NCBI GenBank assembly: GCA_049967035.1 | Contig: JBMFTM010000001.1 | Span: forward strand, 1-57,268 | From: Candidatus Acidifodinimicrobium sp. | Lineage (GTDB): Archaea > Nanobdellota > Nanobdellia > Parvarchaeales > Parvarchaeaceae | DNA length: 57,268 nucleotides | Direction: 5' to 3' | Shown: positions 9,117 to 56,323 of the stretch, one piece after another | How the letters are laid out: every line of letters begins with the position of its first letter | Position numbering within the stretch: position 1 is the first letter of the stretch | Made by a program: the position numbers and the translations under genes | Notes under the pieces: model-generated | What the model saw: only the letters and a program-made list of their open reading frames with translations | Databases searched by the model: none | What the model was told of the DNA's origin: nothing

Positions 9117-9403
9117 TATACGCGGCGTTGAATAGCCCGTTTTCTGTCGCATCTCCACCATCTAAAGTGGCATCACTGTAATGCGTTGTGATATTCGACT
9201 GAGCGCCCAAATAGGGTTTGCACGCCACAGGTCCGCTGTTTCATCCCCTCTCTGCAAAAATCAGCCTTGCCTCATACTTAGCTTGCAGTAGGGGTGTCAT
9301 TTCTGTTCGGTTGCCTACATTTTACTGTACTGCATTGCTGCAGTGTGGTTTTTGCCGTGAACGGACTTCCTCCGACGGTAAATCACATACAACGCCGCGT
9401 ATA
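9117..9403 (-). ncRNA. rnpB: RNase P RNA
   Basis: All elements read on the minus strand. A 14-bp terminal helix pairs 9390-9403 with 9117-9130. CR-I is GGAGGAAGUCCG (9362-9373). ACAGAAAACGGGCU lies at 9134-9147, and its AACGGGCU pairs with AGUCCGUU to form P4. There are GCAA and GUAA-type hairpin loops. GC content is higher than the flanks. A TATA-like box sits about 25 nt upstream, and a T-run (9098-9103) lies downstream. Confidence 0.85.
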
Positions 9404-21355: not shown

Positions 21356-21754
21356 TCAAGAGCTAACGTTTGTGGAAGGCGAAAGAACATCGCCTTTCTC
21401 AACCTTTACAAAGTCAGGCACAACTAGCAGGTAATCTTCATCTATCCCGACTATCTGCGCCCCAGCTGCATCTGCGCTTCTCTTGATCTTTGTTATCGTC
21501 CTCTTGAGTTCATCCATTCCACCTTTCTCTCTTAATTCCTTCACCTTTACAAAGACCAACGTGTATCCCGACCTTATGTCGTTTAGCAGCGCACTTGCGT
21601 CCTCATATTTCACCAACACAAAGTACTTCACATAGACCTTTGCCGATGGCTTATCACTTTTTTCAACTTCCAGCTCAACATATTGGCCGGAATTTTCTAC
21701 ATCCACTTTTTTCTTAAATACATTAAGAAAACTGTCAAAAGATAGGTTTGTCAT
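21356..21754 (-). CDS. sepF: cell division protein SepF-like (DUF552)
   Basis: VKYFVLVKYEDASALLNDIRSGYTLVFVKVKEL...ITKIKRSADAAGAQIVGIDEDYLLVVPDFVKV matches the SepF core pattern. Start set at ATG 21754; the track start is TTG 21787. Confidence 0.6.
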   Translation of the reverse strand: MTNLSFDSFLNVFKKKVDVENSGQYVELEVEKSDKPSAKVYVKYFVLVKYEDASALLNDIRSGYTLVFVKVKELREKGGMDELKRTITKIKRSADAAGAQIVGIDEDYLLVVPDFVKVEKGDVLSPSTNVSS

Positions 21755-21864
21755 ATTGATCACCTTAATATCAATTGTTGTTTTCAATATTTAAATGTAT
21801 TTAGTTCAACCTTTTCAGTCGCATCAGTAAATTCTGGTTCAAACTGGGGGATAACCATATAAAG

Positions 21865-27575: not shown

Positions 27576-27833
27576 CTACTTCTTGAAACCAATTACAGCC
27601 ACTTTGAATGATTTTCCACACAGTATTGACAAAGCCTCACTGTCTTTTTCATATTCTACTTTCTCAACAGGCAGCGCTTTGATCTTGTTGGCTATCTCAT
27701 CGGTCAAGTTATTTGCATATACTATCGTGTCTATCTTGCCGTCTTTGGCAGCTTTAACCGTCCTTTTAAAGCCTATTACAACCTCATTCTTCTTTATCTT
27801 TTCGGTCAGCTTTTCCTTCAGTTTTTCTTCCAT
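27576..27833 (-). CDS. rpl30e: 50S ribosomal protein L30e
   Basis: [25 protein letters not shown] and [16 protein letters not shown], in the conserved position after rpoA2. It overlaps the rpoA2 3' end by 50 nt. Confidence 0.8.
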
Positions 27834-28914
27834 AATCCAAAGATATCAACTTCACACTACCTGTCCCCACAGGAACTACTTGGTTAGATATAACATTGTT
27901 CGCTACGTATTTGAACTCATCTATGTCATGCTCCAATGAAGCGTTTATCAGGTGTTTCAATGGCACCTCAAATGACGCTCTCGCAAGTATAGAACTGGAT
28001 TCGCCGGTTATTCCGTACCTGTTCACGCCCTTCACTTCACCGCTGAAGCACATTGCATCTGCTATTAACATTATGTGTCTTATGTCAACTGCTAAGCCGA
28101 CATTTTCAAGTGTTTCGGATACTTCTTCGATTATTAGGTTTCGTGCTATCTCTATCCCTAAAACCTCAGACGTTTCGATTATATCATTAGTTATCGTTCT
28201 AGATTGATCAACCTCTTCCATCCTAAGTATATCTTTAAGGTTTGAGCCGGCGGTTGTTATCCAATATTTTTTATCATCTGTTTCATTTATTATCACACTA
28301 CTTATACCTTTAACTCCCGATAGAGTGAGTCCGACTATCTTGTTGCGCAGTTTTATCAGCTTTTTGACTGAGTCTGCGCCTTTATCTTTGATTATTAGAC
28401 TATTGTCATTTATATTGACCTCTAATTTCATGTTGGATAAAAGTTTCTCAATGTCTTTAAGCGTAAATCCGTAGCTCTTAATAGCTTCCTTATCAAATAA
28501 AAGCGTGACCTCTCTTCTTTTGATATCTATGCTATAAGAACTGATCACATCACCTGCTTTTATTTCCATTATCTTGCTTGCAAATTCTGTGGCTTTTTGC
28601 TTAGACTCTTCATACTCTTTCTTTAGGTAGATCTTCATAGTCGGCGTAGAGATTTCCTTCTTTGCATCGAAGATTTCTACCATTCTTGGTAGTCCAGAGG
28701 TAGTGTTCAAAGCCGCTATACCAGCCGCGTGCTTTGTCCTCAATGTAAGTTGCGTGCTTGCTTCACCTAGACTCTGAGCAGCTATGACGCCCACATCCTC
28801 TCCTGGCGTTATGAGTGATCTTTCATATACGGCCTGAAGCTTATCCATATCAGCATCTTTTCCGTACTTTTCTATGTACTTATTCACATATTTCTTAGGT
28901 ACATCTATTTTCAT
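27784..28914 (-). CDS. rpoA2: DNA-directed RNA polymerase subunit A'' (Rpo1C)
   Basis: [29 protein letters not shown] (trigger-loop region) and [21 protein letters not shown]. Confidence 0.95.
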
Positions 28915-31433
28915 ATGTTAAGCTCTCCTTTATCACTTAATGATACATCCAGTCCATCTTCCCCATACACAAACTGTATAATCTTATTGCCTTCCCTAAC
29001 TGATAAATCCTCTGCTACCTTCAAGTCCTGCAGTGCAGATGATAGTCTTCTGTTCATGTAACCAGATACAGGTGTCCTTATAACATTATCCATTAACCCC
29101 TCCCTACTACTTCCTGCATGTAGGAAGAATTCTATCGGATTAAGTCCGTCTCTATAGTTAGACACTACAAAGCCCCTAGGTATAAGGCCCATGTCGTTTT
29201 TCTTGAAGTGTGCAGTTAATCGGCCATCGTAACCATTGTTCATACGCGTATCTCTAAGAAGCTGCTGTCCAATCATACCAGCTGCTGGGAAGAAATTCAT
29301 TATGCTCCCCTTTGCGCCTGTTATCATCATATCGTTTATTTCATTTGCTCTTTCGTTTATCCCTGCTCTTGTGGCATTTCTTATCTTGCCTCTTACCTTG
29401 TTAGTCAAAGACAATATATCCTGTTCGACATCCTTGTTGTAGTCTTTTAGCATCTTATTTACTTCTTCATTTGCTTCTTCAAATATGCTATGTATCTCCG
29501 ACATAGTCTTTTCAGGCAAGTCGAAGTTTGCTATGTTGGCGCTTATACCGAACTTAAGCAATGTAATGAGTGCTAATCTTGAAAGCTGGTCTATGAATTT
29601 TGCAGTTGTCTCTCCCCCATACTGAACGAACAAGTACTGCAGTAGGCTTCCATTCTCTTTACCTATGGTTGCACTGTCAATTATCCCCCTCTCTAGTTTT
29701 CCATTCTTTATGACAACGTACGAATCCTCATCGTTTGAAAACTTATACACAGAGCTTTCACTTTCAAAGTTCAGGTCTTTTGGCAACAGCATACTGAATA
29801 TCTCTCTGCCGGTATATGTCGACTTGCTCAGTTTTGTGTCTATTCCTATGAATGTTAGAAAATCTTCCGCTGTGCTTTTGTCTATTTTGGTTTCCTTTCT
29901 GGTTAGAATAGCCGAACCGGAGATGTAATCTTGAGCTGCGCCTATTACTGGTAATCCATGTCTAGGCGAGACTATATTGTTCTTTATGTTCATTATAAGT
30001 GCAGCTTCTGCGAGAGCTTCTTCTGTCTGTAGAACATGGATATTCATTTCATCTCCATCGAAATCTGCGGCATAAGGAAGCGTGGATGCGGGGTTTATCC
30101 TAAATGTCTTTCCATCTAATACTCTAACAGAATGGCCCATTATGGACAGACGATGGAGAGACGGCTGCCTGTTGAATAGGATTATGTCACCATTTAGCAT
30201 GCTTCTCTCGACAATGTACCCGGGCTTAAGCTCGTCTAATATGTTTTGAACCGTACTCTCTGTAATTTTTCTTCTTATGCCATCCGGTGTAACTATATAG
30301 CTTGCATTTGGATAGCCATTCAGATTCTTTATGAGTGCTTTCAGCCTATCAATGTTTATCTCAGTTACTCTCTCTGGATAAGTGACTTCTTTCGCTATCT
30401 GCATTGGCACACCTACCTCATCTAAACGAATCATCGAATCAGGAGATATTGTAGACCTGGCACTATAGTTTGCCCTCTTTCCAAGCGTTGAGCCTCGGAA
30501 CCTGCCCTCTTTGCCCTTTATCCTGTCCTCAAGGGTTTTAAGTTTCTTTCCAGATTTATGCCTAGCAATTGGAACCTGTGCCGTTCCGTTTGATATGAAT
30601 GTGGTTATATGATATTGGAGTAAATCCCACAGCTCTTCTATTATGACTTCTGGTGCTCCAGATTTTATGTTTTCAGCGAGTCGCTGGTTTGTTCTAACTA
30701 TATCTGTCAATTTGTGTGTTAGATCATCTTCGCTTTTCTGTCCGCTTTCAAGTGTTATTGGCGGCCTTATGGTCACAGGTGGTATCGGTAATACTGTGAA
30801 TATCATCCATTCTGGTCTTGAGTATTCCTGGCTCATCCCTAAAAATTGGAGATCTGCGTCGCTTATCCTCTCTAATCTTTCCCTTACGTCACTTGCATTC
30901 AATTTCTGGCCATTGTATATAAAGGTATACGGCTTCTCTAATTTCACTTTGTGTTGTTTTGAGTGGCAGAATGGGCATGTGTTTATGCTTTTTGCATGTT
31001 TGATTAGCTTCCTTACATACCTCTTTTTCCCTAAATCACCTTCTCTTGCTTCTATAGCATCCATTGTGATCGTAGCTTTCTTTAAGATAGCCTCAGGTAT
31101 AAGTATTCTCCCACATGCATCGCAAGTTGCATTCAGCAGGTCATATATCTTTGGTATCATCTTTATGTTAAACACTGGTCTTGCAAGCTCTAGGTGGCCA
31201 AAATGCCCGGGGCAGTCTTTTATTGTGTTGCCGCAGGTCCTGCATACTAATCCAGGATCAGTTATGCCGAGCCTCATGTCCGCTAATCCGCCATCAACAG
31301 GGAACCCATCTATATCATACAATTCAGATGAAGTTATGGCTACACTGCTCATCTTCTCTATCATCCTAGGCGAAAGCACACCAAATTCTATCCCGTATAT
31401 CTTATTGAAAACAAAATTTGAATCTAATCTCAT
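28911..31433 (-). CDS. rpoA1: DNA-directed RNA polymerase subunit A' (Rpo1N)
   Basis: Zinc motifs [34 protein letters not shown] and the catalytic [10 protein letters not shown]. Confidence 0.97.
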
Positions 31434-33232
31434 ATCTTACTCCCTATCAACAGCTTTGGATAAATTCCCATTGATTTTAGCTCATCTAACAATATCTTGA
31501 ATGAATTCGACACTTCTACTAACTTTATAGGCACGTCCTCCCCATCTACGGGGCAGTAACCTGTTCTCTTTTTCACGTTGTAAACTGCGACTAATCCGCA
31601 TTTTGCACACACTGGTATTGTCACCTTATCCGAATCAAATCTCTCCTTCAACGCAAGCGCTGCCCCATAGGCGACAAAACAGTCTTTCTCCATCTCCCCT
31701 AATCTTAACCCCCCACGCTTTGACTTGCCCTCTGTTGGTTGCCTCGTTAAGAGCTGCACAGGTCCCCTGGCTCTCCATTGGACTTTGTTTGTGACCACAT
31801 GTTTCAATCTGGTGTAGAGCATGTCCCCTACGAATATTGTAGCTTCTATTTCATCGCCAGTTATAGCATTGTACATCTTCTCTACCCCATTTTCTCTGAA
31901 GCCATAAGATTGTAATTCTTTTCTAAGATCCTCTCCTTTCTCTCCTATGAATGGCGTTCCATCAACGAATCTACCGCCAAGTGCCCCAACTTTCCCACCT
32001 ATCATCTCTAAAAGGAACCCCATTGTCATCCTACTGGGTATAGAGTATGGCGAGAATATTACATCAGGAACTATCCCAGATTGAGTGAATGGCATATCCT
32101 CCTGTCTTACCAGCATACCAACCACGCCTTTTTGGCCGCTTCTTGTACCAAACTTATCACCTATCTCTACCGGTAAATCCTCCCTGATTTTTACCGACAC
32201 ATATTTGTTACCTTCCGAAGTTGAAGAAATAAATACATTGTCAACCACTCCATGCTCTGTCTGTCTACATTCTACAGAAGTTTCTATCCTCTTTTGTATT
32301 CCAAGTCTGAATTTATCTATTGATGATACAAATCTAGGCGGGGACACTTTGCCTATTATAACATCCCCACCCTCAACATAAGTTCCTGGGGAGACTATTC
32401 CATCTTCGTCTAAAAGTTTGTACGCTTCTTCTGACTTGTAGTCTATAACATCCTTATCTGGTATGCCTATCTCATCCTTCTGTCCGCCGACATAGTGTAG
32501 TTCTGTAACCTTATAGGGCCTAAAGAACGAGGCTCTGAACAATCCGCGCTCTACTGCTGACTTATTGATTATTATCGCATCGTCCATGTTGTAGCCTAAG
32601 TAAGATATGACTGCTACAACTATGTTCTTTCCTATAGGATGTGCTTTTATGTTGTCTTCATCGTATATTTTTGTTTTAACGATTGGTTGCTCTTGGTCAT
32701 AAGCAACTATTATATCATTGTCCATCCTTATCCTGTAATTTGAACTGTATATCCCAACACCCTGCTGTACACTTTTTATGGCTATTACACTTCTGTGCGC
32801 ATTGTTGTGGTTTATGAAAGGCAGCATAGTTGCTTGTAAGCCTATCACTGATAATGGGCTTATTTCCAGATGAGTATGTTCCTTTGTTAGGCTCTTCTCA
32901 TCCAAGGCTATGTATGCCTCTTCCTCCTCATCTGCATCCAAATATTCTATCTTCCCTTGAGCTACAAGGTTTTCCCATGTAACTCTCCCCTGCTTCAAGA
33001 ATTCAATGTCTTCCTTCGTGACTAATGGTTTTCCATCCTTTACGACTATAAGCGCCCTTGTAAGTCTTCCGCCCTCTGTATTCACTAACAATGAATCTAT
33101 ATCCTCTCTATATCTTACGTTTATATTTTGATTTATCTTGTTGTTTCTTCGATCTTCTATTATGTTCTGCTCTATTTCCTTTGCTTTATTGGTCTTTCCT
33201 ACAAGTTTTCCGTCTACGAACACTAAACTCAT
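31430..33232 (-). CDS. rpoB1: DNA-directed RNA polymerase subunit B' (C-terminal half of Rpo2)
   Basis: GDKFGTRSGQKGVVG, GGLRLGEMEKDC and a C-terminal Zn ribbon CAKCG...CPVDG. Confidence 0.97.
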   Translation of the reverse strand: MSLVFVDGKLVGKTNKAKEIEQNIIEDRRNNKINQNINVRYREDIDSLLVNTEGGRLTRALIVVKDGKPLVTKEDIEFLKQGRVTWENLVAQGKIEYLDADEEEEAYIALDEKSLTKEHTHLEISPLSVIGLQATMLPFINHNNAHRSVIAIKSVQQGVGIYSSNYRIRMDNDIIVAYDQEQPIVKTKIYDEDNIKAHPIGKNIVVAVISYLGYNMDDAIIINKSAVERGLFRASFFRPYKVTELHYVGGQKDEIGIPDKDVIDYKSEEAYKLLDEDGIVSPGTYVEGGDVIIGKVSPPRFVSSIDKFRLGIQKRIETSVECRQTEHGVVDNVFISSTSEGNKYVSVKIREDLPVEIGDKFGTRSGQKGVVGMLVRQEDMPFTQSGIVPDVIFSPYSIPSRMTMGFLLEMIGGKVGALGGRFVDGTPFIGEKGEDLRKELQSYGFRENGVEKMYNAITGDEIEATIFVGDMLYTRLKHVVTNKVQWRARGPVQLLTRQPTEGKSKRGGLRLGEMEKDCFVAYGAALALKERFDSDKVTIPVCAKCGLVAVYNVKKRTGYCPVDGEDVPIKLVEVSNSFKILLDELKSMGIYPKLLIGSKI

Positions 33233-34707
33233 ATTGGTTTCACTCCGTATTCCTTAAGTTTATTTATTATCTCTTCTTGGTAATTGTTCTCCGAAGAGAT
33301 CTTTGCAAAATTAGCGATATGTTTAGTTAGACCTATCTTTGGCCCTTCTGGTGTTTCAACGGGACAGAACCTTCCGAAGTGCGTCCCATGTAAATCCCTT
33401 GCTTCATAATTCTCTCTGTTGGATGACAGTAAAGATTCAACCTTTCTGAGGTTAGAGATAGTAAAAGGAAAGCTCTTCCTATCAAGGTGCTGTGTTATCC
33501 CTACTCTCCCTCCAACCCACTGTCCAGTTGCCAACGCTGAATTTAACCTAGATGTCAGTTGATCTGAAGTGAATATGTACTGTGGCGGCTGTATCTTGTC
33601 TTTTTTCATTCCTCTTTCAAAGTTATATTTTGCATCGTTTATTACCTGTTTGAATATGAATCTGAAGAGCATATCAAGGTTATAATTCTCCGAGTGTAAC
33701 CTTTTGTTTGAATAATGGTCCTTGAATACCTCTTTCCCTTCTTTCTCATAGCTCAGTAGATACCTCACTACGAATTTTAGGTATTCGGCTTTCACAGCCC
33801 TAGATTCTTTTGTTCTACCTAAAAACGGCAGAAGCAAGGAATCTATATTCGTCTCAGCCGTTTCTTTTGGATGTGACGAGTGTATCGAATTTCCAATGTA
33901 CTCCAATGCTTCTTTCTCCGTGCCTGGATTGAAAACCTCAAAGTTTATGTCGATTATGTTTTTAAAGTCTTCATCTTCACCAGCTATATCCGCTCTTATA
34001 GAGCTCTCGCTCTCTACTCCGAGCGCTTTTAGCATGGTCACCACTGGTATCCTCTTCATCTTGCCAAAGTTAATGTAGAGCAGGTAGCTATTTGACAGGA
34101 ATATAACATGGGGGACCTTCACTTCTTCAGCGTCTGCAAATACCTTTGCAGTGTAAAGTACACCCTCTCTATTCTCTTTGTTTATAAGTACATTGTTTGG
34201 AACAAGGTCCTCAGTAGTAAGTATTATCCTCTCAGTCCCGTTTATTATGAAGTATCCACCAGGATCATAGGGGTCCTCTTTCGCTTTTATTAGTTCATCG
34301 CGGCTAAGCCCATAAAGGTGGCATAGCTTGGATTTTACGACTATGGGAAGCCTGCCTATAAATATCTTCTCTTCGAGTATTGGATTGTCATCTGCTATGT
34401 ATGATACCGGCACAAACATAGGCGCATTATAGGTAAGGTCCCTTATCCTGGCCTCCATAGGCATAAGTTTCCTAACTGCGCTGTCAACTTCGTTTATCTC
34501 AGGTTTTAGAAGTTCAATCTTGCCCAATTTTATGTAGAATTCTTTTGAAGTGCTGGGTTTTATCGCTGGTTCTATCACTGAATTTGAATCTATTATCTTT
34601 TGCAAGGTATTTTCAGTGAAGAAGTTGAAGGAATCTATGTGATACTGCATCACTTCGTGCGCAGATAAAGCCGAATTTAAAAGCTGAAGATAGTCCTCTT
34701 TTTCCAT
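33229..34707 (-). CDS. rpoB2: DNA-directed RNA polymerase subunit B'' (N-terminal half of Rpo2)
   Basis: HIDSFNFF, GYFIINGTERII and CPVETPEGPKIGL. 4-nt overlap with rpoB1. Confidence 0.97.
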   Translation of the reverse strand: MEKEDYLQLLNSALSAHEVMQYHIDSFNFFTENTLQKIIDSNSVIEPAIKPSTSKEFYIKLGKIELLKPEINEVDSAVRKLMPMEARIRDLTYNAPMFVPVSYIADDNPILEEKIFIGRLPIVVKSKLCHLYGLSRDELIKAKEDPYDPGGYFIINGTERIILTTEDLVPNNVLINKENREGVLYTAKVFADAEEVKVPHVIFLSNSYLLYINFGKMKRIPVVTMLKALGVESESSIRADIAGEDEDFKNIIDINFEVFNPGTEKEALEYIGNSIHSSHPKETAETNIDSLLLPFLGRTKESRAVKAEYLKFVVRYLLSYEKEGKEVFKDHYSNKRLHSENYNLDMLFRFIFKQVINDAKYNFERGMKKDKIQPPQYIFTSDQLTSRLNSALATGQWVGGRVGITQHLDRKSFPFTISNLRKVESLLSSNRENYEARDLHGTHFGRFCPVETPEGPKIGLTKHIANFAKISSENNYQEEIINKLKEYGVKPI

Positions 34708-45811: not shown

Positions 45812-46591
45812 TCACAGCGGGAAATAAGGTATTTTCCCTAAAAATATCATAACACTTACGGCTAATGAGATGACAAAAAATGTAGCCCATATTTTCTTGT
45901 TCCATCTGAAGACCTTTGCCCCATCCAATGGCATTATTGGTATCAAGTTAAACGCACAAAGATAAAAGTTTACGAAAGCTGGTATCGCGAGTATTATCAG
46001 GATAGGGTAAGCAGCTGCTACAGTTAAGTTTAAGTATACGGCTAAAAAGAAAGCAAGATAAAATAATCCAAGGAAAACAAAGCCGAATATCAGATTTATC
46101 TTTGGTCCGGCAAATGATATTATTCCATACCTTTTCCTAAATCCATTTGGATCCATGTACATCTCACTCGGGTCTGGTTCAAAGTATGTCGCCCCAGGTG
46201 CGGCGTATACAAATCCGAACAAGCTGGTTACAAGCGCAAGGAGAAGCCCAAAAATCCACATCCTGAAATGCGCTTCGTACCCATATCTCTGCGCGTCGAA
46301 CTTATGCATTAGCTCGTGCATTATGAATCCACAGGCTATGGCTATCATTGAGCCTATGAATATGTAAATGAAGGAGAATTTACCTAAAATCTGCAGAATT
46401 TGCGACCCCGAAAAGTCATAAAAGAGAGCGTAGGCGAATGCGACTGATAGCGCGAACCATGCGATACCTATATCTATCAATTCTCTTTTGTTGAAACCGT
46501 ACCTGGTATAGTCAATATTGAGTCTAAGATTGAACCTGCGCAACGCATGTCTTTTCCTATGCTTTATTACCCTCGCTCTTCTCTCTACCAT
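45812..46591 (-). CDS. site-2 protease family (M50) membrane metalloprotease
   Basis: HELMH zinc motif within a TM helix, and NLIPIMPLDGAKV (NxxPxxxLDG). Confidence 0.85.
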   Translation of the reverse strand: MVERRARVIKHRKRHALRRFNLRLNIDYTRYGFNKRELIDIGIAWFALSVAFAYALFYDFSGSQILQILGKFSFIYIFIGSMIAIACGFIMHELMHKFDAQRYGYEAHFRMWIFGLLLALVTSLFGFVYAAPGATYFEPDPSEMYMDPNGFRKRYGIISFAGPKINLIFGFVFLGLFYLAFFLAVYLNLTVAAAYPILIILAIPAFVNFYLCAFNLIPIMPLDGAKVFRWNKKIWATFFVISLAVSVMIFLGKIPYFPL

Positions 46592-51239: not shown

Positions 51240-51450
51240 TTAATTAATTCGTCGAGAATTCCCCTTTCGTGAGATGAGAGATGAAAGGCGGTAAGGATAA
51301 GTATTTATGAAAGAAATGGCAAACAAAAATATGCGTAATTATAAATTCAGGCTGTACCCAAACAAGGTAGTGGAAGCAGAACTGGACAGACAGTTGGATT
51401 TATACCGTTGGGAGCCTGAAAAAAGGGGAAATGGAAAACAATGTAAATGA
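51240..51450 (+). mobile_element. IS200/IS605-family (IS1341-like) left-end remnant with a truncated tnpB 5' fragment, copy B
   Basis: Homologous to 38958-39076. It carries a potential hairpin CCTTTC(51263-68)/GAAAGG(51283-88). It encodes MANKNMRNYKFRLYPNKVVEAELDRQLDLYRWEP, then loses TnpB similarity. The 44-codon ORF (51316-51450) ends 20 nt into aglB. Confidence 0.65.
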
Positions 51451-54400
51451 AGGTAAGCCTCGAGAATCCTCCTCGGAAATCCATGAAGAAAAAAAGACGG
51501 AAAAAGTCACCGAGCTTGAATTAAATCTCAATCTTGATTCTATAAAATCGATGTTGAAGCCAGTGGTAAAGTATGGCGTAGGTTATGGTCTCATATTTGC
51601 CATTCTAGCGGTTTTGATGGTGGCCTCTTTGCTTTACACTTACCTATCGATTTATTTCTATATCACCCTCGGGCTTATGATAGTCTCGGCTGTCCTCTCA
51701 GCCTTATTCACCAAACACAAGGCGCCTTTTTACGCGCTTTTGTTTACAGCAATAATCCTAGGTTTGTTGATAAGGACTGCTAGTCTGCCTGCATTAGGGG
51801 CTACGCCACTGGTCGGCAATGATTATCTAGGTATGGGTGGTTCACTTACTGGTCTAGACCCGTATGAATTCTATGATCTTATGAGGGACATCATTACAAC
51901 TGGCAATGTACCAGTGATAAATCACCTTCAGTACCTCCCGATAGGGTTACCTTCTAGGTCTCAGGAGGTTCTTATATCATTTTTCGGCGCATACATGTAC
52001 CGTTTCATGCAGCCTTTGGTTCCAGCCGCTACTCCAATGACTTGGTTTATGATTTATCCGCCGATTGTTGCGGCGGTTATGACTCTGCTTTTATTCTTTA
52101 TTCTGTTGTATGTCTTTAGAGATTATTGGATGGCTTCTTTGGGGGCCTTTGTTTTTCCCGCGTTTGAAACACTGCTAGGCAGGACCTCAGCAGGATTTTC
52201 AACTAAGACCGCGATGGGTTTCATGTTCATATTCTTGTCATTTTTCATGCTTGTAAAAATATTCACGTCAAAAGACAGAAATTCTAAACTGCTGTATGGC
52301 TTTCTGATGGCCATATCAGTAGGTTTTGGGACGATAACCAGCGGCTACCCCGTGTTCTCTGTAATAACCATACCGCTGACATACCTTCTTTTGATAATGT
52401 TTGAATTTGATAAGAAGGAGGATCTGTACGCGTTTTTGCCATTTGGATTGTTCCTAGCATTCGAAGCCAGCTTCTTGAACTTCAGTCTGTCGAACTTGTT
52501 GAGCTTTGAGCTGTTTCCGATGTACTTTGTATATTTAGTGATACTCTTTAAGCTTTTCGTTTATGATAAATACAAAGACAGATTGAGGATACCGCACATC
52601 AACGAAGGCACAAGCCCAGTGATATATGCACTCTTGATAGGCTTTGTGATAAGCTTAATCCCCAAGTTGAATTTACTCCATAAAATCCTTACATTCCTTA
52701 GCTCGGAGATAGCTCATCCGCTTGGCCTTGGCGCTGTAAATCCGCTGTCTTTGACGATTGCTGAGTACGGCGTCGTTAACCTCGCAGATAGGTTCTCAGA
52801 GTACAATTTTGTTGTTTCAGGTATTGGGGTAAATTTCTTGCTGCTGTTCATTGGCTCAGGAGTGCTCCTTTATCTTATTTCAAGGAGATTCAAACACTGG
52901 TATATCTTCTATTCTCTGTTGCTTCCGATGGTGGTACTTATAAATGGTGGAACATTTTCGTTCAGCTTATCATCTGAAGTTTACCTTATAGTGGCAGTTA
53001 TAATGTCATTTTTGCCAGAGGTCATAGCGCTGTATGAATTCAGTCGGCACAGAAGCAAAAAGCTCCTCGGAAATGTGGCTGTTTTTGTGTTTATATCTAT
53101 AATCTTGATTGTTGTTTCGCTGGCTATAGGGCAAGCTAAGAATTACTATAAATATGGGGCCTTTGGTTTGATTGGCATATTCACTATATTCTTAGTATTT
53201 GATAAATTTGAAAGAGAAAGTGTCTCCGATAAAGTGTACCTCATGCTCCTAACTTTATTCATTTTGACATTGGTGTTATCAAATTTAGAGTTGAGACTTC
53301 TGGAACCGACTGATCTAACAGCGGCGTTGTTGGTTCCTCTAGCAGTTGTTTTCTTGACTAATTCCGGGATCAAATACACTAAGTCATTATTCAAGAGCCC
53401 TGAACAGAAGAGGTTATTTTATCTAGCAGTAGGTCTGATAACCATTATAGCGCTTACATTCGTTGCTATAGAGCTGTATGACAGTTTGACAGTATCCTAT
53501 CAGATAGCGCAGCAAAGTGGCTCAGGTCTTGCGCTTTGGGGCCCTACTATGCTCTGGATAAACCAGAATACCCCTGCTAACAGTTCAATAATCTCGTGGT
53601 GGGATTATGGTTATTGGGAAGAGGCGATAGCTGGAAGAACAGCCGTTGCTGACGGGAGTAACGCCTATGGATATCAATCTATGATTGCAAAGTACTTCTT
53701 TGAAGCCACATCGCCTTATCAGTATGCGACTTATCTTCATTTTATCCACGAACCAACATACGCAGTTATAAGCGGCAGCGAAGTTTTAAAGTTCTCAGCT
53801 ATCTCAACGATAGCATTGAAGTCGACTGAATTCTCTCCACTGATAGAGGGAACCTCACAGTTGAATTCTAACAACATCGGTAATGCTAGTTATAAGTATC
53901 TGGCTGTGTTTGGAGGGAGCCCAAGCACAGGTTATGCTTTAGTCAATTCGAATGTAACAGTTGGATTACAGAACATCCCGGCAAGTGATGCCATACTACT
54001 TGAGGTGCTGCTGCCATTTAATTCATCAACAGTGATAGGAAAACCTTACGGTATAATCTACAATACCTTAACACAGCAGGCTTCGTCTCCTATGCCGATA
54101 GATTACATGTGTACTTATTCTAAGGGGTGTGTGCAGGAAAGCACAAGCGGCATACCTGGAGGGTTCATGCTTCTTCTTCCAAACGAGACAGCAACTCTTC
54201 ATATAGGTGGAGTAGGTCAGGGCTATATACCGGAACCAATTAATCTATCATCCTACGGAAATCAACCTGCTGGCTTATTCATGCCAAATCAAACATTGAA
54301 CACATTATTCGTAAAGTTATATCTGTTAAATGAGACTGTGCCTGGCTTTAAATTGGTGTTCTCTGACAACCTGCCAGTCAACTCTCTTCTAAGTATCGAG

Positions 54401-54577
54401 AATCAAGTTCTTACGAACATAAATGTTTATCAGATAAACTACACACAGCTTTCAAAGTATGAATTGACCGGAGAATGTTCGACTTCCCCTACAGCTATAA
54501 ACTACTGTGATAACCTAAGCTATCTTCCAAGTGTGTTTGATAAGAACCTTTCTCTCATAGAAAACAATAGCATTTAG
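51431..54577 (+). CDS. aglB: archaeal oligosaccharyltransferase AglB (STT3 family)
   Basis: About 13+ N-terminal TM helices followed by the WWDYGYW (WWDYG) catalytic motif, and a large soluble C-terminal domain. 1048 aa. Confidence 0.9.
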   Translation: MENNVNEGKPRESSSEIHEEKKTEKVTELELNLNLDSIKSMLKPVVKYGVGYGLIFAILAVLMVASLLYTYLSIYFYITLGLMIVSAVLSALFTKHKAPFYALLFTAIILGLLIRTASLPALGATPLVGNDYLGMGGSLTGLDPYEFYDLMRDIITTGNVPVINHLQYLPIGLPSRSQEVLISFFGAYMYRFMQPLVPAATPMTWFMIYPPIVAAVMTLLLFFILLYVFRDYWMASLGAFVFPAFETLLGRTSAGFSTKTAMGFMFIFLSFFMLVKIFTSKDRNSKLLYGFLMAISVGFGTITSGYPVFSVITIPLTYLLLIMFEFDKKEDLYAFLPFGLFLAFEASFLNFSLSNLLSFELFPMYFVYLVILFKLFVYDKYKDRLRIPHINEGTSPVIYALLIGFVISLIPKLNLLHKILTFLSSEIAHPLGLGAVNPLSLTIAEYGVVNLADRFSEYNFVVSGIGVNFLLLFIGSGVLLYLISRRFKHWYIFYSLLLPMVVLINGGTFSFSLSSEVYLIVAVIMSFLPEVIALYEFSRHRSKKLLGNVAVFVFISIILIVVSLAIGQAKNYYKYGAFGLIGIFTIFLVFDKFERESVSDKVYLMLLTLFILTLVLSNLELRLLEPTDLTAALLVPLAVVFLTNSGIKYTKSLFKSPEQKRLFYLAVGLITIIALTFVAIELYDSLTVSYQIAQQSGSGLALWGPTMLWINQNTPANSSIISWWDYGYWEEAIAGRTAVADGSNAYGYQSMIAKYFFEATSPYQYATYLHFIHEPTYAVISGSEVLKFSAISTIALKSTEFSPLIEGTSQLNSNNIGNASYKYLAVFGGSPSTGYALVNSNVTVGLQNIPASDAILLEVLLPFNSSTVIGKPYGIIYNTLTQQASSPMPIDYMCTYSKGCVQESTSGIPGGFMLLLPNETATLHIGGVGQGYIPEPINLSSYGNQPAGLFMPNQTLNTLFVKLYLLNETVPGFKLVFSDNLPVNSLLSIENQVLTNINVYQINYTQLSKYELTGECSTSPTAINYCDNLSYLPSVFDKNLSLIENNSI

Positions 54578-55183: not shown

Positions 55184-56201
55184 ATGGGCCTGCCTTATGA
55201 GGGTATAAAACGTGAAGTTATGTCTTTGCGCGATGAGGCGACCTGTGAGGATTACGGAGTATATCCCGACAGGAGAGATATAAAGCAGAAGCTTGACCTT
55301 GGCTTCATTTTGCTTGATAAGCCAAGTGGAATGAGATCAAAGACTTCCGCTTTTATCGCCAAGAGGATACTGTCTCCGCTGAATGTCAGTAAGATCGGTT
55401 ACTCAGGGACTTTAGTGTGATTCACAAAGAAATCCCAACGTGACTGGATTACTGCCTTTATCCTTAAACCGCGCAAATAAAGCGATAGCTCTCCTTCTTT
55501 TAGGCGGAAAAGAATACATTGCCTTAATGCATGTTCATAAAGAATTCGAAGAAGAGAACCTGAAGAAACAGATGCTGGAGTTTGTTGGCAAGATAAATCA
55601 GCTTCCGCCGGTAAGATCAAATGTGAAAAGGCAGTATAGAGAGAGAACAGTTTATTATCTAGACGTATTGGAAGTAGATGGAAGAGATGTCCTCTTCAGG
55701 GTGGGTGTAGAATCAGGCACATATATAAGGAAGCTGATACACGACATGGGGGAAAAGATTGGTGTAGGCGCCCATATGGTGGAATTGAGGAGAACGAAAG
55801 TTGCTAACCTCACTGAAGATGATGGTTTGTCGACCCTTCAAAATTTAGAAGATGCAGTTTACTTCTATGAAAAGGAGGGGGATGAAAAGCCATTAAATAA
55901 GGTGATACAGAATATAGAGAAAGCGGTAGATTTTCTTCCGAAGGTGTGGATATCTGATTTTGCCGTTGATACGGTCTGCAAAGGTGCTCCAGTAGCTGTC
56001 CCTGGCGTAGTGAAGTTTAATCCTTTCAAAATAGGCGAATGGGTTTTGATATACACGTTGAAGGGCGAGATAGTCGCTATAGGTAAGGCAGCGATAGATT
56101 CAAGTTCACTGAAAGACATAGAGAAAGGTATAGTAATAAGAACTGACAGTGTTATAATGAGATCTGGTGTGTATCCGGAGTATCATAGAGCACGACAATA
56201 G
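55184..56201 (+). CDS. cbf5: H/ACA RNP pseudouridine synthase Cbf5; proposed spliced CDS join(55184..55415,55432..56201)
   Basis: Two track ORFs (55184-55420; 55440-56201) together cover a complete Cbf5: LLDKPSGMRS, GKEYIALMHVH, GVESGTYIRKLIHD and a PUA domain at the C-terminus. After removal of 55416-55431 the reading frame is continuous (333 aa) and the catalytic motif reads GTLDPNVTG. Confidence 0.85.
55416..55431 (+). other. putative 16-nt bulge-helix-bulge intron in cbf5 pre-mRNA
   Basis: The region folds into a canonical hBHBh' motif. The outer helix is 55406-09/55433-36 (GGGA/UCCC). The central 4-bp helix is 55410-13/55426-29 (CUUU/AAAG). The two 3-nt bulges are AG|U (55414-16) and AA|A (55430-32). 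The apical helix is 55417-19/55423-25 with an AUU loop. Confidence 0.7.
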
Positions 56202-56206
56202 TGTAT

Positions 56207-56280
56207 GGGGTGGTAGTCTAGCTTGGTATGATACTGGTTTCGGGTGCCAGAGGTCGTGGGTTCAAATCCCATCCACCCCA
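56207..56280 (+). tRNA. tRNA-Pro (anticodon CGG)
   Basis: GGGGTGGTAGTCTAGCTTGGTATGATACTGGTTTCGGGTGCCAGAGGTCGTGGGTTCAAATCCCATCCACCCCA. Acceptor stem GGGGTGG/CCACCCC, anticodon arm CTGGT-TTCGGGT-GCCAG with G37, and T arm GTGGG-TTCAAAT-CCCAT. No encoded CCA. Confidence 0.9.
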
Positions 56281-56323
56281 ATTGCGCGTATAATCAAATA
56301 TTTGCATTGAATTTTAAAAAGTA

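Follow-up and report, generated by a model that had tools for sequence, protein, structure and literature searches.

A probable bulge-helix-bulge intron at the catalytic aspartate codon of cbf5 in a Parvarchaeota (DPANN) archaeon

Protein-coding introns of the bulge-helix-bulge (BHB) type are regarded in the literature as an extreme rarity. For the intron of the crenarchaeal cbf5 gene, splicing in vivo and cutting by the tRNA splicing endonuclease EndA have been demonstrated in Aeropyrum and Sulfolobus. The literature on this intron reportedly also includes Watanabe 2002 and Yoshinari 2006. The crenarchaeal cbf5 introns measure 16-44 bp, occur in Desulfurococcales and Sulfolobales, disrupt the codon that specifies the catalytic residue and mostly form an unconventional BHB; the splicing of cbf5 mRNA has been tied to the (alpha-beta)2 form of the endonuclease (Yokobori 2009). 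The present analysis concerns cbf5 on contig JBMFTM010000001.1 of Candidatus Acidifodinimicrobium sp., within a stretch of 57,268 nucleotides (the window). The gene is interrupted by 16 nt inside the very same codon, and these 16 nt are very probably a BHB intron in the cbf5 pre-mRNA of an archaeon from a distant phylum, Candidatus Parvarchaeota (DPANN). The interrupted gene is laid out as follows.

55184-55415, forward strand: cbf5 exon 1, 77 codons and the G of the Asp codon (translation; DKCLD and the start of TruB_N)
55416-55431, forward strand: predicted BHB intron, 16 nt (excision restores GAU and the 333-aa open reading frame; near-identical in relatives)
55418-55420, forward strand: in-frame TGA that ends translation of the unspliced mRNA after 78 residues (list of open reading frames)
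55432-56201, forward strand: cbf5 exon 2, from the AU of the Asp codon through the stop (translation; TruB_N, TruB_C_2, PUA)

Read without splicing, the open reading frame (ORF) of 55184-55420 encodes 78 amino acids with the C-terminal end KIGYSGTLV and stops at the TGA. The homology to Cbf5 is picked up again in the +1 frame, in which the mechanically listed ORF extends from GTG 55440 to 56201. Excision of 55416-55431 (forward strand, TGTGATTCACAAAGAA / UGUGAUUCACAAAGAA) joins G55415 to A55432-U55433, forming a GAU (Asp) codon and a single 333-codon ORF that contains GTLDPNVTG; if either intron boundary is shifted by one base, the Asp codon is lost. Enzymes of the TruB/Cbf5 family use this Asp as their catalytic residue. 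An earlier reading of the bare sequence (the original prediction) had proposed the same 16-nt deletion and the same 333-codon product, and it is right at every coordinate. The predicted spliced Cbf5 carries the full domain set (DKCLD, TruB_N, TruB_C_2 and PUA) and is collinear end to end with Cbf5 of Pyrococcus abyssi (2aus; E 2e-90), GTLDP being aligned on GTLDP. The RNA junction expected after excision is UUAG|AUCCC (the bar marks the splice site), and the predicted peptide spanning it is ...GYSGTLDPNVTGLLPL... The intron contains no ORF, and its length lies inside the published range of the crenarchaeal cbf5 introns.

The structure around the intron was read directly from the window, and its conservation was followed in 151 cbf5 loci (numbered with L below) in which the junction could be defined: 66 from a species-representative genome collection (the genome set), 80 from metagenomes, retrieved with an exon-2-only crenarchaeal alignment, plus look-ups. 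Inserts at the G|AY position of the Asp codon, 12-67 nt long, occur in 85 of the 151, a sampling that is query-biased, so that frequencies are not to be read from such counts. The elements of the motif are the following.

55406-55436, forward strand: complete BHB motif with outer helix and apical helix (hBHBh'), 31 nt, GGGACTTTAGTGTGATTCACAAAGAAATCCC (direct reading; feasible at -4.4 kcal/mol; RNAalifold on homologues returns the same register)
55406-55409, forward strand: 5' strand of the outer helix, GGGA, i.e., the Gly codon and the first Thr base, pairing with 55433-55436 (4/4 pairs in 30/30 intron-bearing loci of the genome set)
55410-55413, forward strand: exon strand of the central 4-bp helix, CUUU, pairing with 55426-55429, all Watson-Crick (99.2% of cells paired in 30 distinct sequences)
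55414-55416, forward strand: 5' bulge A G|U, predicted splice site 55415|55416 (85/85 intron-bearing loci have AGA, AGU or GGA here)
55417-55425, forward strand: apical helix h', GUG/CAC (55417-19 / 55423-25), with an AUU loop (direct reading; invariant in the window clade)
55426-55429, forward strand: intron strand of the central helix, AAAG (covaries with the exon strand: AAAG, GAAG, AAGG, AGAG, AGGG, GGGG)
55430-55432, forward strand: 3' bulge A A|A, predicted splice site 55431|55432 (in 85/85 loci, the Asp codon contributes its exon A as the third bulge base)
55433-55436, forward strand: 3' strand of the outer helix, UCCC, i.e., the last Asp base and the Pro codon (of the intron-bearing genes of the genome set, 30/30 have GAU for Asp and 28/30 have CCC for Pro)

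The helices and bulges of the original prediction are, thus, all present. The two 3-nt bulges are on opposite strands and exactly 4 bp apart, and with a 4-bp outer helix and a 3-bp apical helix, the motif has the strict hBHBh' form. Canonical cutting takes place between bulge residues 2 and 3 (Yokobori 2009). Both predicted junctions fall after the second bulge nucleotide, and an in-silico cut at these two places gives a joined RNA that encodes the 333-aa Cbf5. The spliced junction, GGGA-CUUUAGA-UCCC, corresponds to a stem of 4 bp with a loop of 7 nt in which the intron lies between bases 6 and 7, the geometry of a canonical tRNA intron at anticodon-loop position 37/38; the "anticodon stem" is supplied by the Gly (GGN) and Pro (CCN) codons that flank T-L-D. 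The apical helix is swapped for other small hairpins in other lineages.

The motif alone is not rare. A strict scan of both strands (all-Watson-Crick hBHBh' of 4 + 4 + at least 3 bp, intron of 11-60 nt, block shuffles as control) detected three motifs in the window versus 0-3 (mean 1.2) in the shuffles, and a relaxed BHB scan with G.U allowed gave 318 matches versus ~300. At any one given site, on the other hand, such a motif would arise by chance with a probability of ~1e-5. The cbf5 motif stands out from the chance matches because its canonical cuts coincide, to the nucleotide, with the sole deletion that restores both the Asp codon and the frame and because the structure is conserved and covarying in relatives. 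A second strict motif, located in exon 1 of cbf5 itself (55313-55363, with a 36-nt "intron"), was rejected as a chance match: splicing it out would cost the protein its conserved KPSG, and in L007, L001 and L049, its helices are disrupted with no compensating change. Further Watson-Crick matches at 29602-29640 and 46085-46125 are antisense to local genes and were set aside as well. The 16 nt have no other copy at up to 3 mismatches, so that nothing suggests a repeated mobile element.

The closest proteins and genomes belong to Candidatus Parvarchaeota, and not to Desulfurococcales or Sulfolobales. In a neighbour-joining tree of Cbf5 (the trees used here are simple distance trees), the window and the Parvarchaeota sequences form one clade with 100% bootstrap. 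L007, from the metagenome-assembled genome (MAG) KMA_Bin11, is 96% identical, and ARMAN-4 and ARMAN-5 are 58-61% identical; the gene order, cytidylate kinase (cmk) followed by cbf5, is conserved in the relatives. The original prediction had held the host not to be crenarchaeal because of a split rpoB and a SepF gene on the contig. Both genes are confirmed, and the nearest proteins and genomes as well as the tree agree with that judgement.

The 16-nt insert recurs in 10 other assemblies of the window clade (L001-L007, L049, L153 and L154, from NCBI, ENA and Logan). It is identical in eight of them (L001, L003, L004, L006, L007, L049, L153 and L154), and L002 and L005 have one A>G at the equivalent of 55426, by which a U-A pair becomes U.G. 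This identity is to be seen against the divergence of the surrounding gene. Four-fold sites differ by 43% between the window and L001 and by 66%, near saturation, between the window and L049, whereas the intron is 16/16 identical; under neutrality, such identity would have a chance of 0.57^16, ~1e-4, for L001 and of 0.34^16, ~3e-8, for L049. By this comparison of sequences, the intron is far more constrained than neutral sites. The window and L001 also differ by 109 synonymous versus 34 non-synonymous codon changes, and this large excess of synonymous change indicates that cbf5 is functional in both exons.

Pairing between exon and intron is maintained well beyond the window clade. In 82 of the 85 intron-bearing loci, all four pairs are formed between the exon tetranucleotide preceding the 5' bulge and the intron tetranucleotide preceding the 3' bulge, although the helix itself changes: CUUU/AAAG or CUUU/GAAG in Parvarchaeota, CCUU/AAGG or CUCU/AGAG in Woesearchaeota/Nanoarchaeia, and CCCU/AGGG or CCCU/GGGG in archaeon HR01 and TACK-like loci. 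Among the 30 distinct sequences of the covariation set, trimmed to the paired and bulged positions, two of the four central pairs switch from C-G to U-A on both sides (in 5 and 6 sequences) with no unpaired cell, and the covariation score is reached by 0/500 shuffles. When the 3' partner is slid along the sequence, pairing drops from 89% to 80% or less. RNAalifold, run on the untrimmed sequences, independently finds both the outer and the central helix as well as a 3' bulge of 3 nt. The structure is, therefore, conserved through compensatory changes.

The constraint also extends to synonymous positions of the exons. In addition to the Asp and Pro codons listed above, Gly is GGG and the Leu codon ends in A in 30/30 intron-bearing genes of the genome set, and the two genes without CCC have CCU, giving G.U. 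Gly GGG and Pro CCC occur together in only 2/43 intronless genes. Apparent "8-nt introns" in L054 and L072 proved to be artefacts of pattern matching, as both genes are intact, and they were removed from the codon counts. In the sequences compared, this pattern of covariation and codon use holds across at least six separate lineages. The BHB reading of the original prediction is, thus, sustained by independent assemblies, by the constraint on the 16 nt, by compensatory changes and by fixed synonymous sites in the outer helix.

In the mechanism that is proposed, the Gly/Thr codon bases (GGGA) would pair with the Asp/Pro codon bases (UCCC) in the transcript and the Thr/Leu codon bases (CUUU) with the 3' part of the intron (AAAG), leaving two 3-nt bulges on opposite strands, 4 bp apart. 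EndA would cut at G55415|U55416 and A55431|A55432, and RtcB would then join the 2',3'-cyclic phosphate and 5'-OH ends, producing the GAU of the catalytic Asp and the 333-aa Cbf5. The unspliced mRNA would yield just a 78-aa fragment, and the output of Cbf5 would, for this reason, depend on EndA and RtcB. For this lineage, we infer cleavage and ligation from sequence, fold, conservation, covariation and selection, and together these make it very likely that 55416-55431 is an archaeal BHB intron cut by EndA and joined by RtcB. A regulatory role was proposed earlier for the crenarchaeal cbf5 intron (Yokobori 2009); by analogy, one might speculate about such a role in Parvarchaeota. A tRNA-Pro(CGG) (56206-56281, forward strand) begins 5 nt past the stop of cbf5, and cmk, cbf5 and the tRNA may, therefore, share one transcript. 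If so, the machinery for tRNA processing would be acting on the same precursor as cbf5.

Several observations weigh against this intron. The minimum-energy fold of the 31-mer of the window is a register-shifted hairpin, at -8.4 kcal/mol versus -4.4 for the BHB; in single-sequence folds of the relatives, the BHB register is the minimum. Inside the window clade, the intron is nearly invariant, so that the covariation comes only from the comparison with other lineages, and many of the compared loci are close relatives rather than independent observations. The protein database contains no full-length product at >65% identity that could stem from a spliced cDNA, and neither EndA nor RtcB was found in the 57-kb window by a Pfam scan of ~50 ORFs.

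Of the other explanations, the one that survives best is that EndA cuts the transcript but that the exons are not productively joined, the BHB then being a signal for destruction or attenuation, as in the mRNA decay initiated by the tRNA endonuclease in yeast. The yeast enzyme, TSEN, does cleave mRNAs without ligation (review), and ligation in this lineage is a prediction. However, purifying selection acts on both exons as parts of a single collinear Cbf5, and the cut sites are exactly those that rebuild the codon of the catalytic Asp. The crenarchaeal counterpart is, moreover, ligated according to cDNA sequences (Yokobori 2009), and the organism would have no active Cbf5 from a locus that it maintains. 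Cutting without joining is, hence, very improbable.

A truly split gene, whose polypeptides of 78 and ~250 aa would assemble, or a pseudogene must be considered very improbable. It is true that two ORFs are called in every relative and that split genes such as rpoB occur on the same contig, but the catalytic Asp is in neither fragment, and the second ORF could start no earlier than GTG 55440, which is already within the conserved VTG motif. Decay of the gene is ruled out by the excess of synonymous over non-synonymous change. A split gene would also leave the invariant 16 nt, the compensatory changes between exon and intron and the fixed GGG and CCC codons without a reason, and in the ARMAN-4/-5 clade, the insert is in frame and contains a conserved TGA.

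Translational recoding, i.e., a ribosome that frameshifts or hops across the 16 nt, can be given hardly any weight. The stable local hairpin and the in-frame stop just past the take-off region are superficially like the signals of bypassing. The Asp codon, however, comes into being only through the joining, in the RNA, of G55415 to A55432-U55433, and for this reason, a frameshift or hop cannot decode it. Matching take-off and landing codons were not found at the site, and the inserts of the relatives, whether 12, 13, 16 or 17 nt long or longer, up to 67 nt, obey the geometry of the BHB, not a rule of recoding. Finally, an assembly or sequencing artefact, conceivable for a metagenome-type contig, is excluded for practical purposes because 10 other assemblies, made in different projects and with different assemblers, have the insert too.

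The BHB intron is not peculiar to this contig: it is also present in ARMAN-4/-5, in other DPANN archaea and in Bathyarchaeota-like archaea. The ARMAN-4/-5 clade (17 genomes) has a 12-nt insert, GGGACUUUAG|AAGAUUGAAGAA|AUCCC, in which only three loop positions vary. This insert is in frame and has a conserved TGA (L014:2733-2744 in ARMAN-5, L015:2733-2744 in ARMAN-4; L010-L026, L155 and L156), and the 16-nt and 12-nt forms share GAUU...AAGAA. The inner region of the shorter form is only 5 nt (A-NNN-U), so that the h' helix can have 1 bp at most; the 5' splice site is, in effect, in an 8-nt loop. The EndA of ARMAN-4/-5 is reported to be of the plain alpha4 type (Fujishima 2011), a type held to need a strict BHB. 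Either this mini-motif would still be accepted by the alpha4 enzyme or the enzyme would be less strict than thought.

In Parvarchaeota, the intronless L008 (2717-2731) and L009 (2726-2740) are bracketed by the window clade, with its 16 nt, and by the ARMAN-4/-5 clade with L011 and L012, which have 12 nt; only 1% of 200 bootstrap neighbour-joining trees have the intron-bearing sequences as one monophyletic group. The nesting of L008 and L009 inside the intron-bearing clade suggests a precise secondary loss of the intron, after which GGG and CCC would have relaxed to GGT and CCA. The intron occurs only here and there in Woesearchaeota/Nanoarchaeia: L056 and L067 are neighbours of the intronless L042 and L043, and L068 is a neighbour of L045. 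Archaeon HR01 (BEHD01000022.1, an unclassified archaeon in the NCBI taxonomy) has a 13-nt version, GGGACCCUAG|AGGUUUCAGGGAU|AUCCC, with the helix CCCU/AGGG (L070:2715-2727). Among the metagenome loci (L073-L152), 55/80 have an insert of 16-67 nt at the Asp codon, including a 19-nt family of 16 loci on contigs of up to 889 kb and, at the upper end, the 67 nt of L151. L114 and L077, both with the intron, match proteins named Candidatus Bathyarchaeota at 76% and 72% identity, respectively. The versions of Woesearchaeota/Nanoarchaeia, archaeon HR01, the Bathyarchaeota-like and the Sulfolobaceae-like sequences are 13-67 nt long and are all located at G|AY of the Asp codon. The bases that introns of different lineages have in common are those forced by exon coding and BHB pairing; the inner parts differ completely.

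The Woesearchaeota MAG of L056 (CAYMIM010000004.1) has a second insert in the same cbf5 (L056:2647-2668), 22 nt long and located in motif I (KPAGP|SSHQ): GGGCCUAG|AUAGGUUUCAUACCUAAGGCAA|CUCGCAU. Its minimum-energy fold is a perfect hBHBh', with an outer helix of 3 bp, a central helix of 4 bp, an inner helix of 5 bp and 3-nt bulges, and cutting after the second bulge bases restores the frame. It is found in a single MAG, and the close relative L067 is without it. This candidate would add a new position to those at which introns interrupt protein-coding genes. Motif I is also unusual in the window clade and in ARMAN-4/-5, where it reads KPSGMRSKTSAF (window 55325-55360, residues ~48-59) versus KPxGPTSHEV in most archaeal Cbf5.

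The wide and patchy distribution of the Asp-codon intron is evidence against a single crenarchaeal gain. A broader reading, held only tentatively, is that the intron is no crenarchaeal oddity. It might be ancient, preceding the divergence of DPANN and TACK and followed by many precise losses, or it might be a micro-intron that repeatedly colonises the anticodon-arm-like hairpin of G-T-L-D-P, for example, by a reversed EndA/ligase reaction; BHB splicing of mRNA would then be general. If this were true, archaeal gene expression would have a general layer, overlooked so far, in which ordinary, even strict alpha4, tRNA endonucleases splice protein-coding mRNAs; the second BHB intron of L056 hints at it, and the Asp-codon intron might be a checkpoint that couples the production of pseudouridine synthase to the capacity for tRNA splicing.

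The interruption has consequences for annotation. As had been foreseen in the original prediction, gene callers report fragments: in the relatives, a separate 78-aa gene with a DKCLD match and a "Cbf5" of 235-253 aa. The public records P0001, P0002, P0016, P0020, P0057 and P0067 contain the exon-2 fragment alone, without the catalytic Asp, under the name "pseudouridine synthase subunit Cbf5". The mis-annotation of Cbf5 as a truncated protein is systematic across Parvarchaeota MAGs.

The remainder of the window is archaeal as well. Its sole Rfam matches are an archaeal RNase P RNA (9122-9398, reverse strand) and three tRNAs, none with an intron, and its G+C content is 39.9%. The rpoB gene is split in two (33229-34707 and 31430-33232) and lies next to rpoA' and rpoA'', the whole group at 27784-34707 (reverse strand), and the SepF homologue is encoded at 21356-21787 (reverse strand). 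Just upstream of cmk-cbf5, 51431-54577 (forward strand) encodes a multi-pass membrane protein of 1048 aa that has no Pfam match at E <= 0.001; a gene of 1056 aa occupies the same place in the relatives.

In full-text literature searches, no cbf5 intron reported from outside Crenarchaeota came up, although an earlier passing mention for ARMAN is possible. The original prediction had suggested an unreported lineage or an independent case; the insertion position is not independent but the same as in the crenarchaeal intron. An intron at the same nucleotide in DPANN, including the long-public genomes of ARMAN-4/-5, and in Bathyarchaeota-like lineages argues against a single gain in the ancestor of Desulfurococcales and Sulfolobales. 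It also weakens the proposed link between mRNA splicing and the (alpha-beta)2 endonuclease of relaxed specificity, and it exposes a systematic annotation error for Cbf5 in these genomes. The loci offer natural substrates of only 27-31 nt, 31 in the window and 27 in ARMAN-4/-5, on which the specificity of alpha4 enzymes could be examined. A sharper question follows: why is one codon of one gene the recurrent home of an archaeal mRNA intron?

The most distant of the known systems is the cytoplasmic splicing of HAC1/XBP1 mRNA by IRE1 and tRNA ligase/RtcB. In both cases, a protein endonuclease cuts (or, here, would cut) at two small mRNA structures, and a ligase of the tRNA pathway joins the exons, shifting the frame. 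The analogy is one of mechanism only, as HAC1/XBP1 splicing uses IRE1 and another recognition motif, is eukaryotic and is regulated by stress. The BHB intron in the 5' untranslated region of Haloferax volcanii HVO_1309 is closer, being an EndA substrate in an mRNA outside Crenarchaeota that is processed by an enzyme other than (alpha-beta)2 (Schwarz et al. 2020). However, it is situated in an untranslated leader, whereas the cbf5 intron breaks the coding sequence at the active-site codon, and the two genes are unrelated.

With the tRNA intron at position 37/38, the cbf5 intron has in common the two 3-nt bulges 4 bp apart, the outer helix formed between exons, the central helix formed between exon and intron and the short length. 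The spliced product is, likewise, a 4-bp stem with a 7-nt loop, and the same enzymes are presumed to act. On the contrary, the host RNA is here an mRNA without a tRNA body, and the exon bases also encode G-T-L-D-P; an Rfam scan of the window found no match to a tRNA or other Rfam family at the intron site.

The closest counterpart remains the crenarchaeal cbf5 intron, with which the intron of the window shares the gene, the codon, the G|AY phase and the size class. The comparison with crenarchaeal cbf5 that had been suggested in the original prediction places both at the same insertion site. In the Sulfolobaceae-like L073-L075, whose exon 2 is 92% identical to that of S. solfataricus, a 23-nt insert reads GGGACCCUGG|AGCCC...GGGGUA|AUCCA. 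The crenarchaeal-type introns and that of the window are alike in the outer helix formed by the Gly and Pro codons, in the pairing of the Thr/Leu codons with the 3' end of the intron and in the cut after the second bulge base. They differ in the host, a DPANN archaeon here, and in the motif, a strict hBHBh' with an outer helix of 4/4 pairs in all 30 genome-set loci versus 14/55 TACK-like metagenome loci. They would also differ in the enzyme, as the EndA expected in Parvarchaeota is the homotetrameric alpha4 and not (alpha-beta)2 (Fujishima 2011, for ARMAN-4/-5). The locus would, thus, not be a case of a relaxed BHB processed by an (alpha-beta)2 EndA: the motif is strict, and the EndA of Parvarchaeum is alpha4 by the literature. 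Splicing has been demonstrated in the crenarchaeal case and is deduced from sequence in the present one. By position and phase, the intron of the window is the counterpart, in a distant phylum, of the known crenarchaeal intron.

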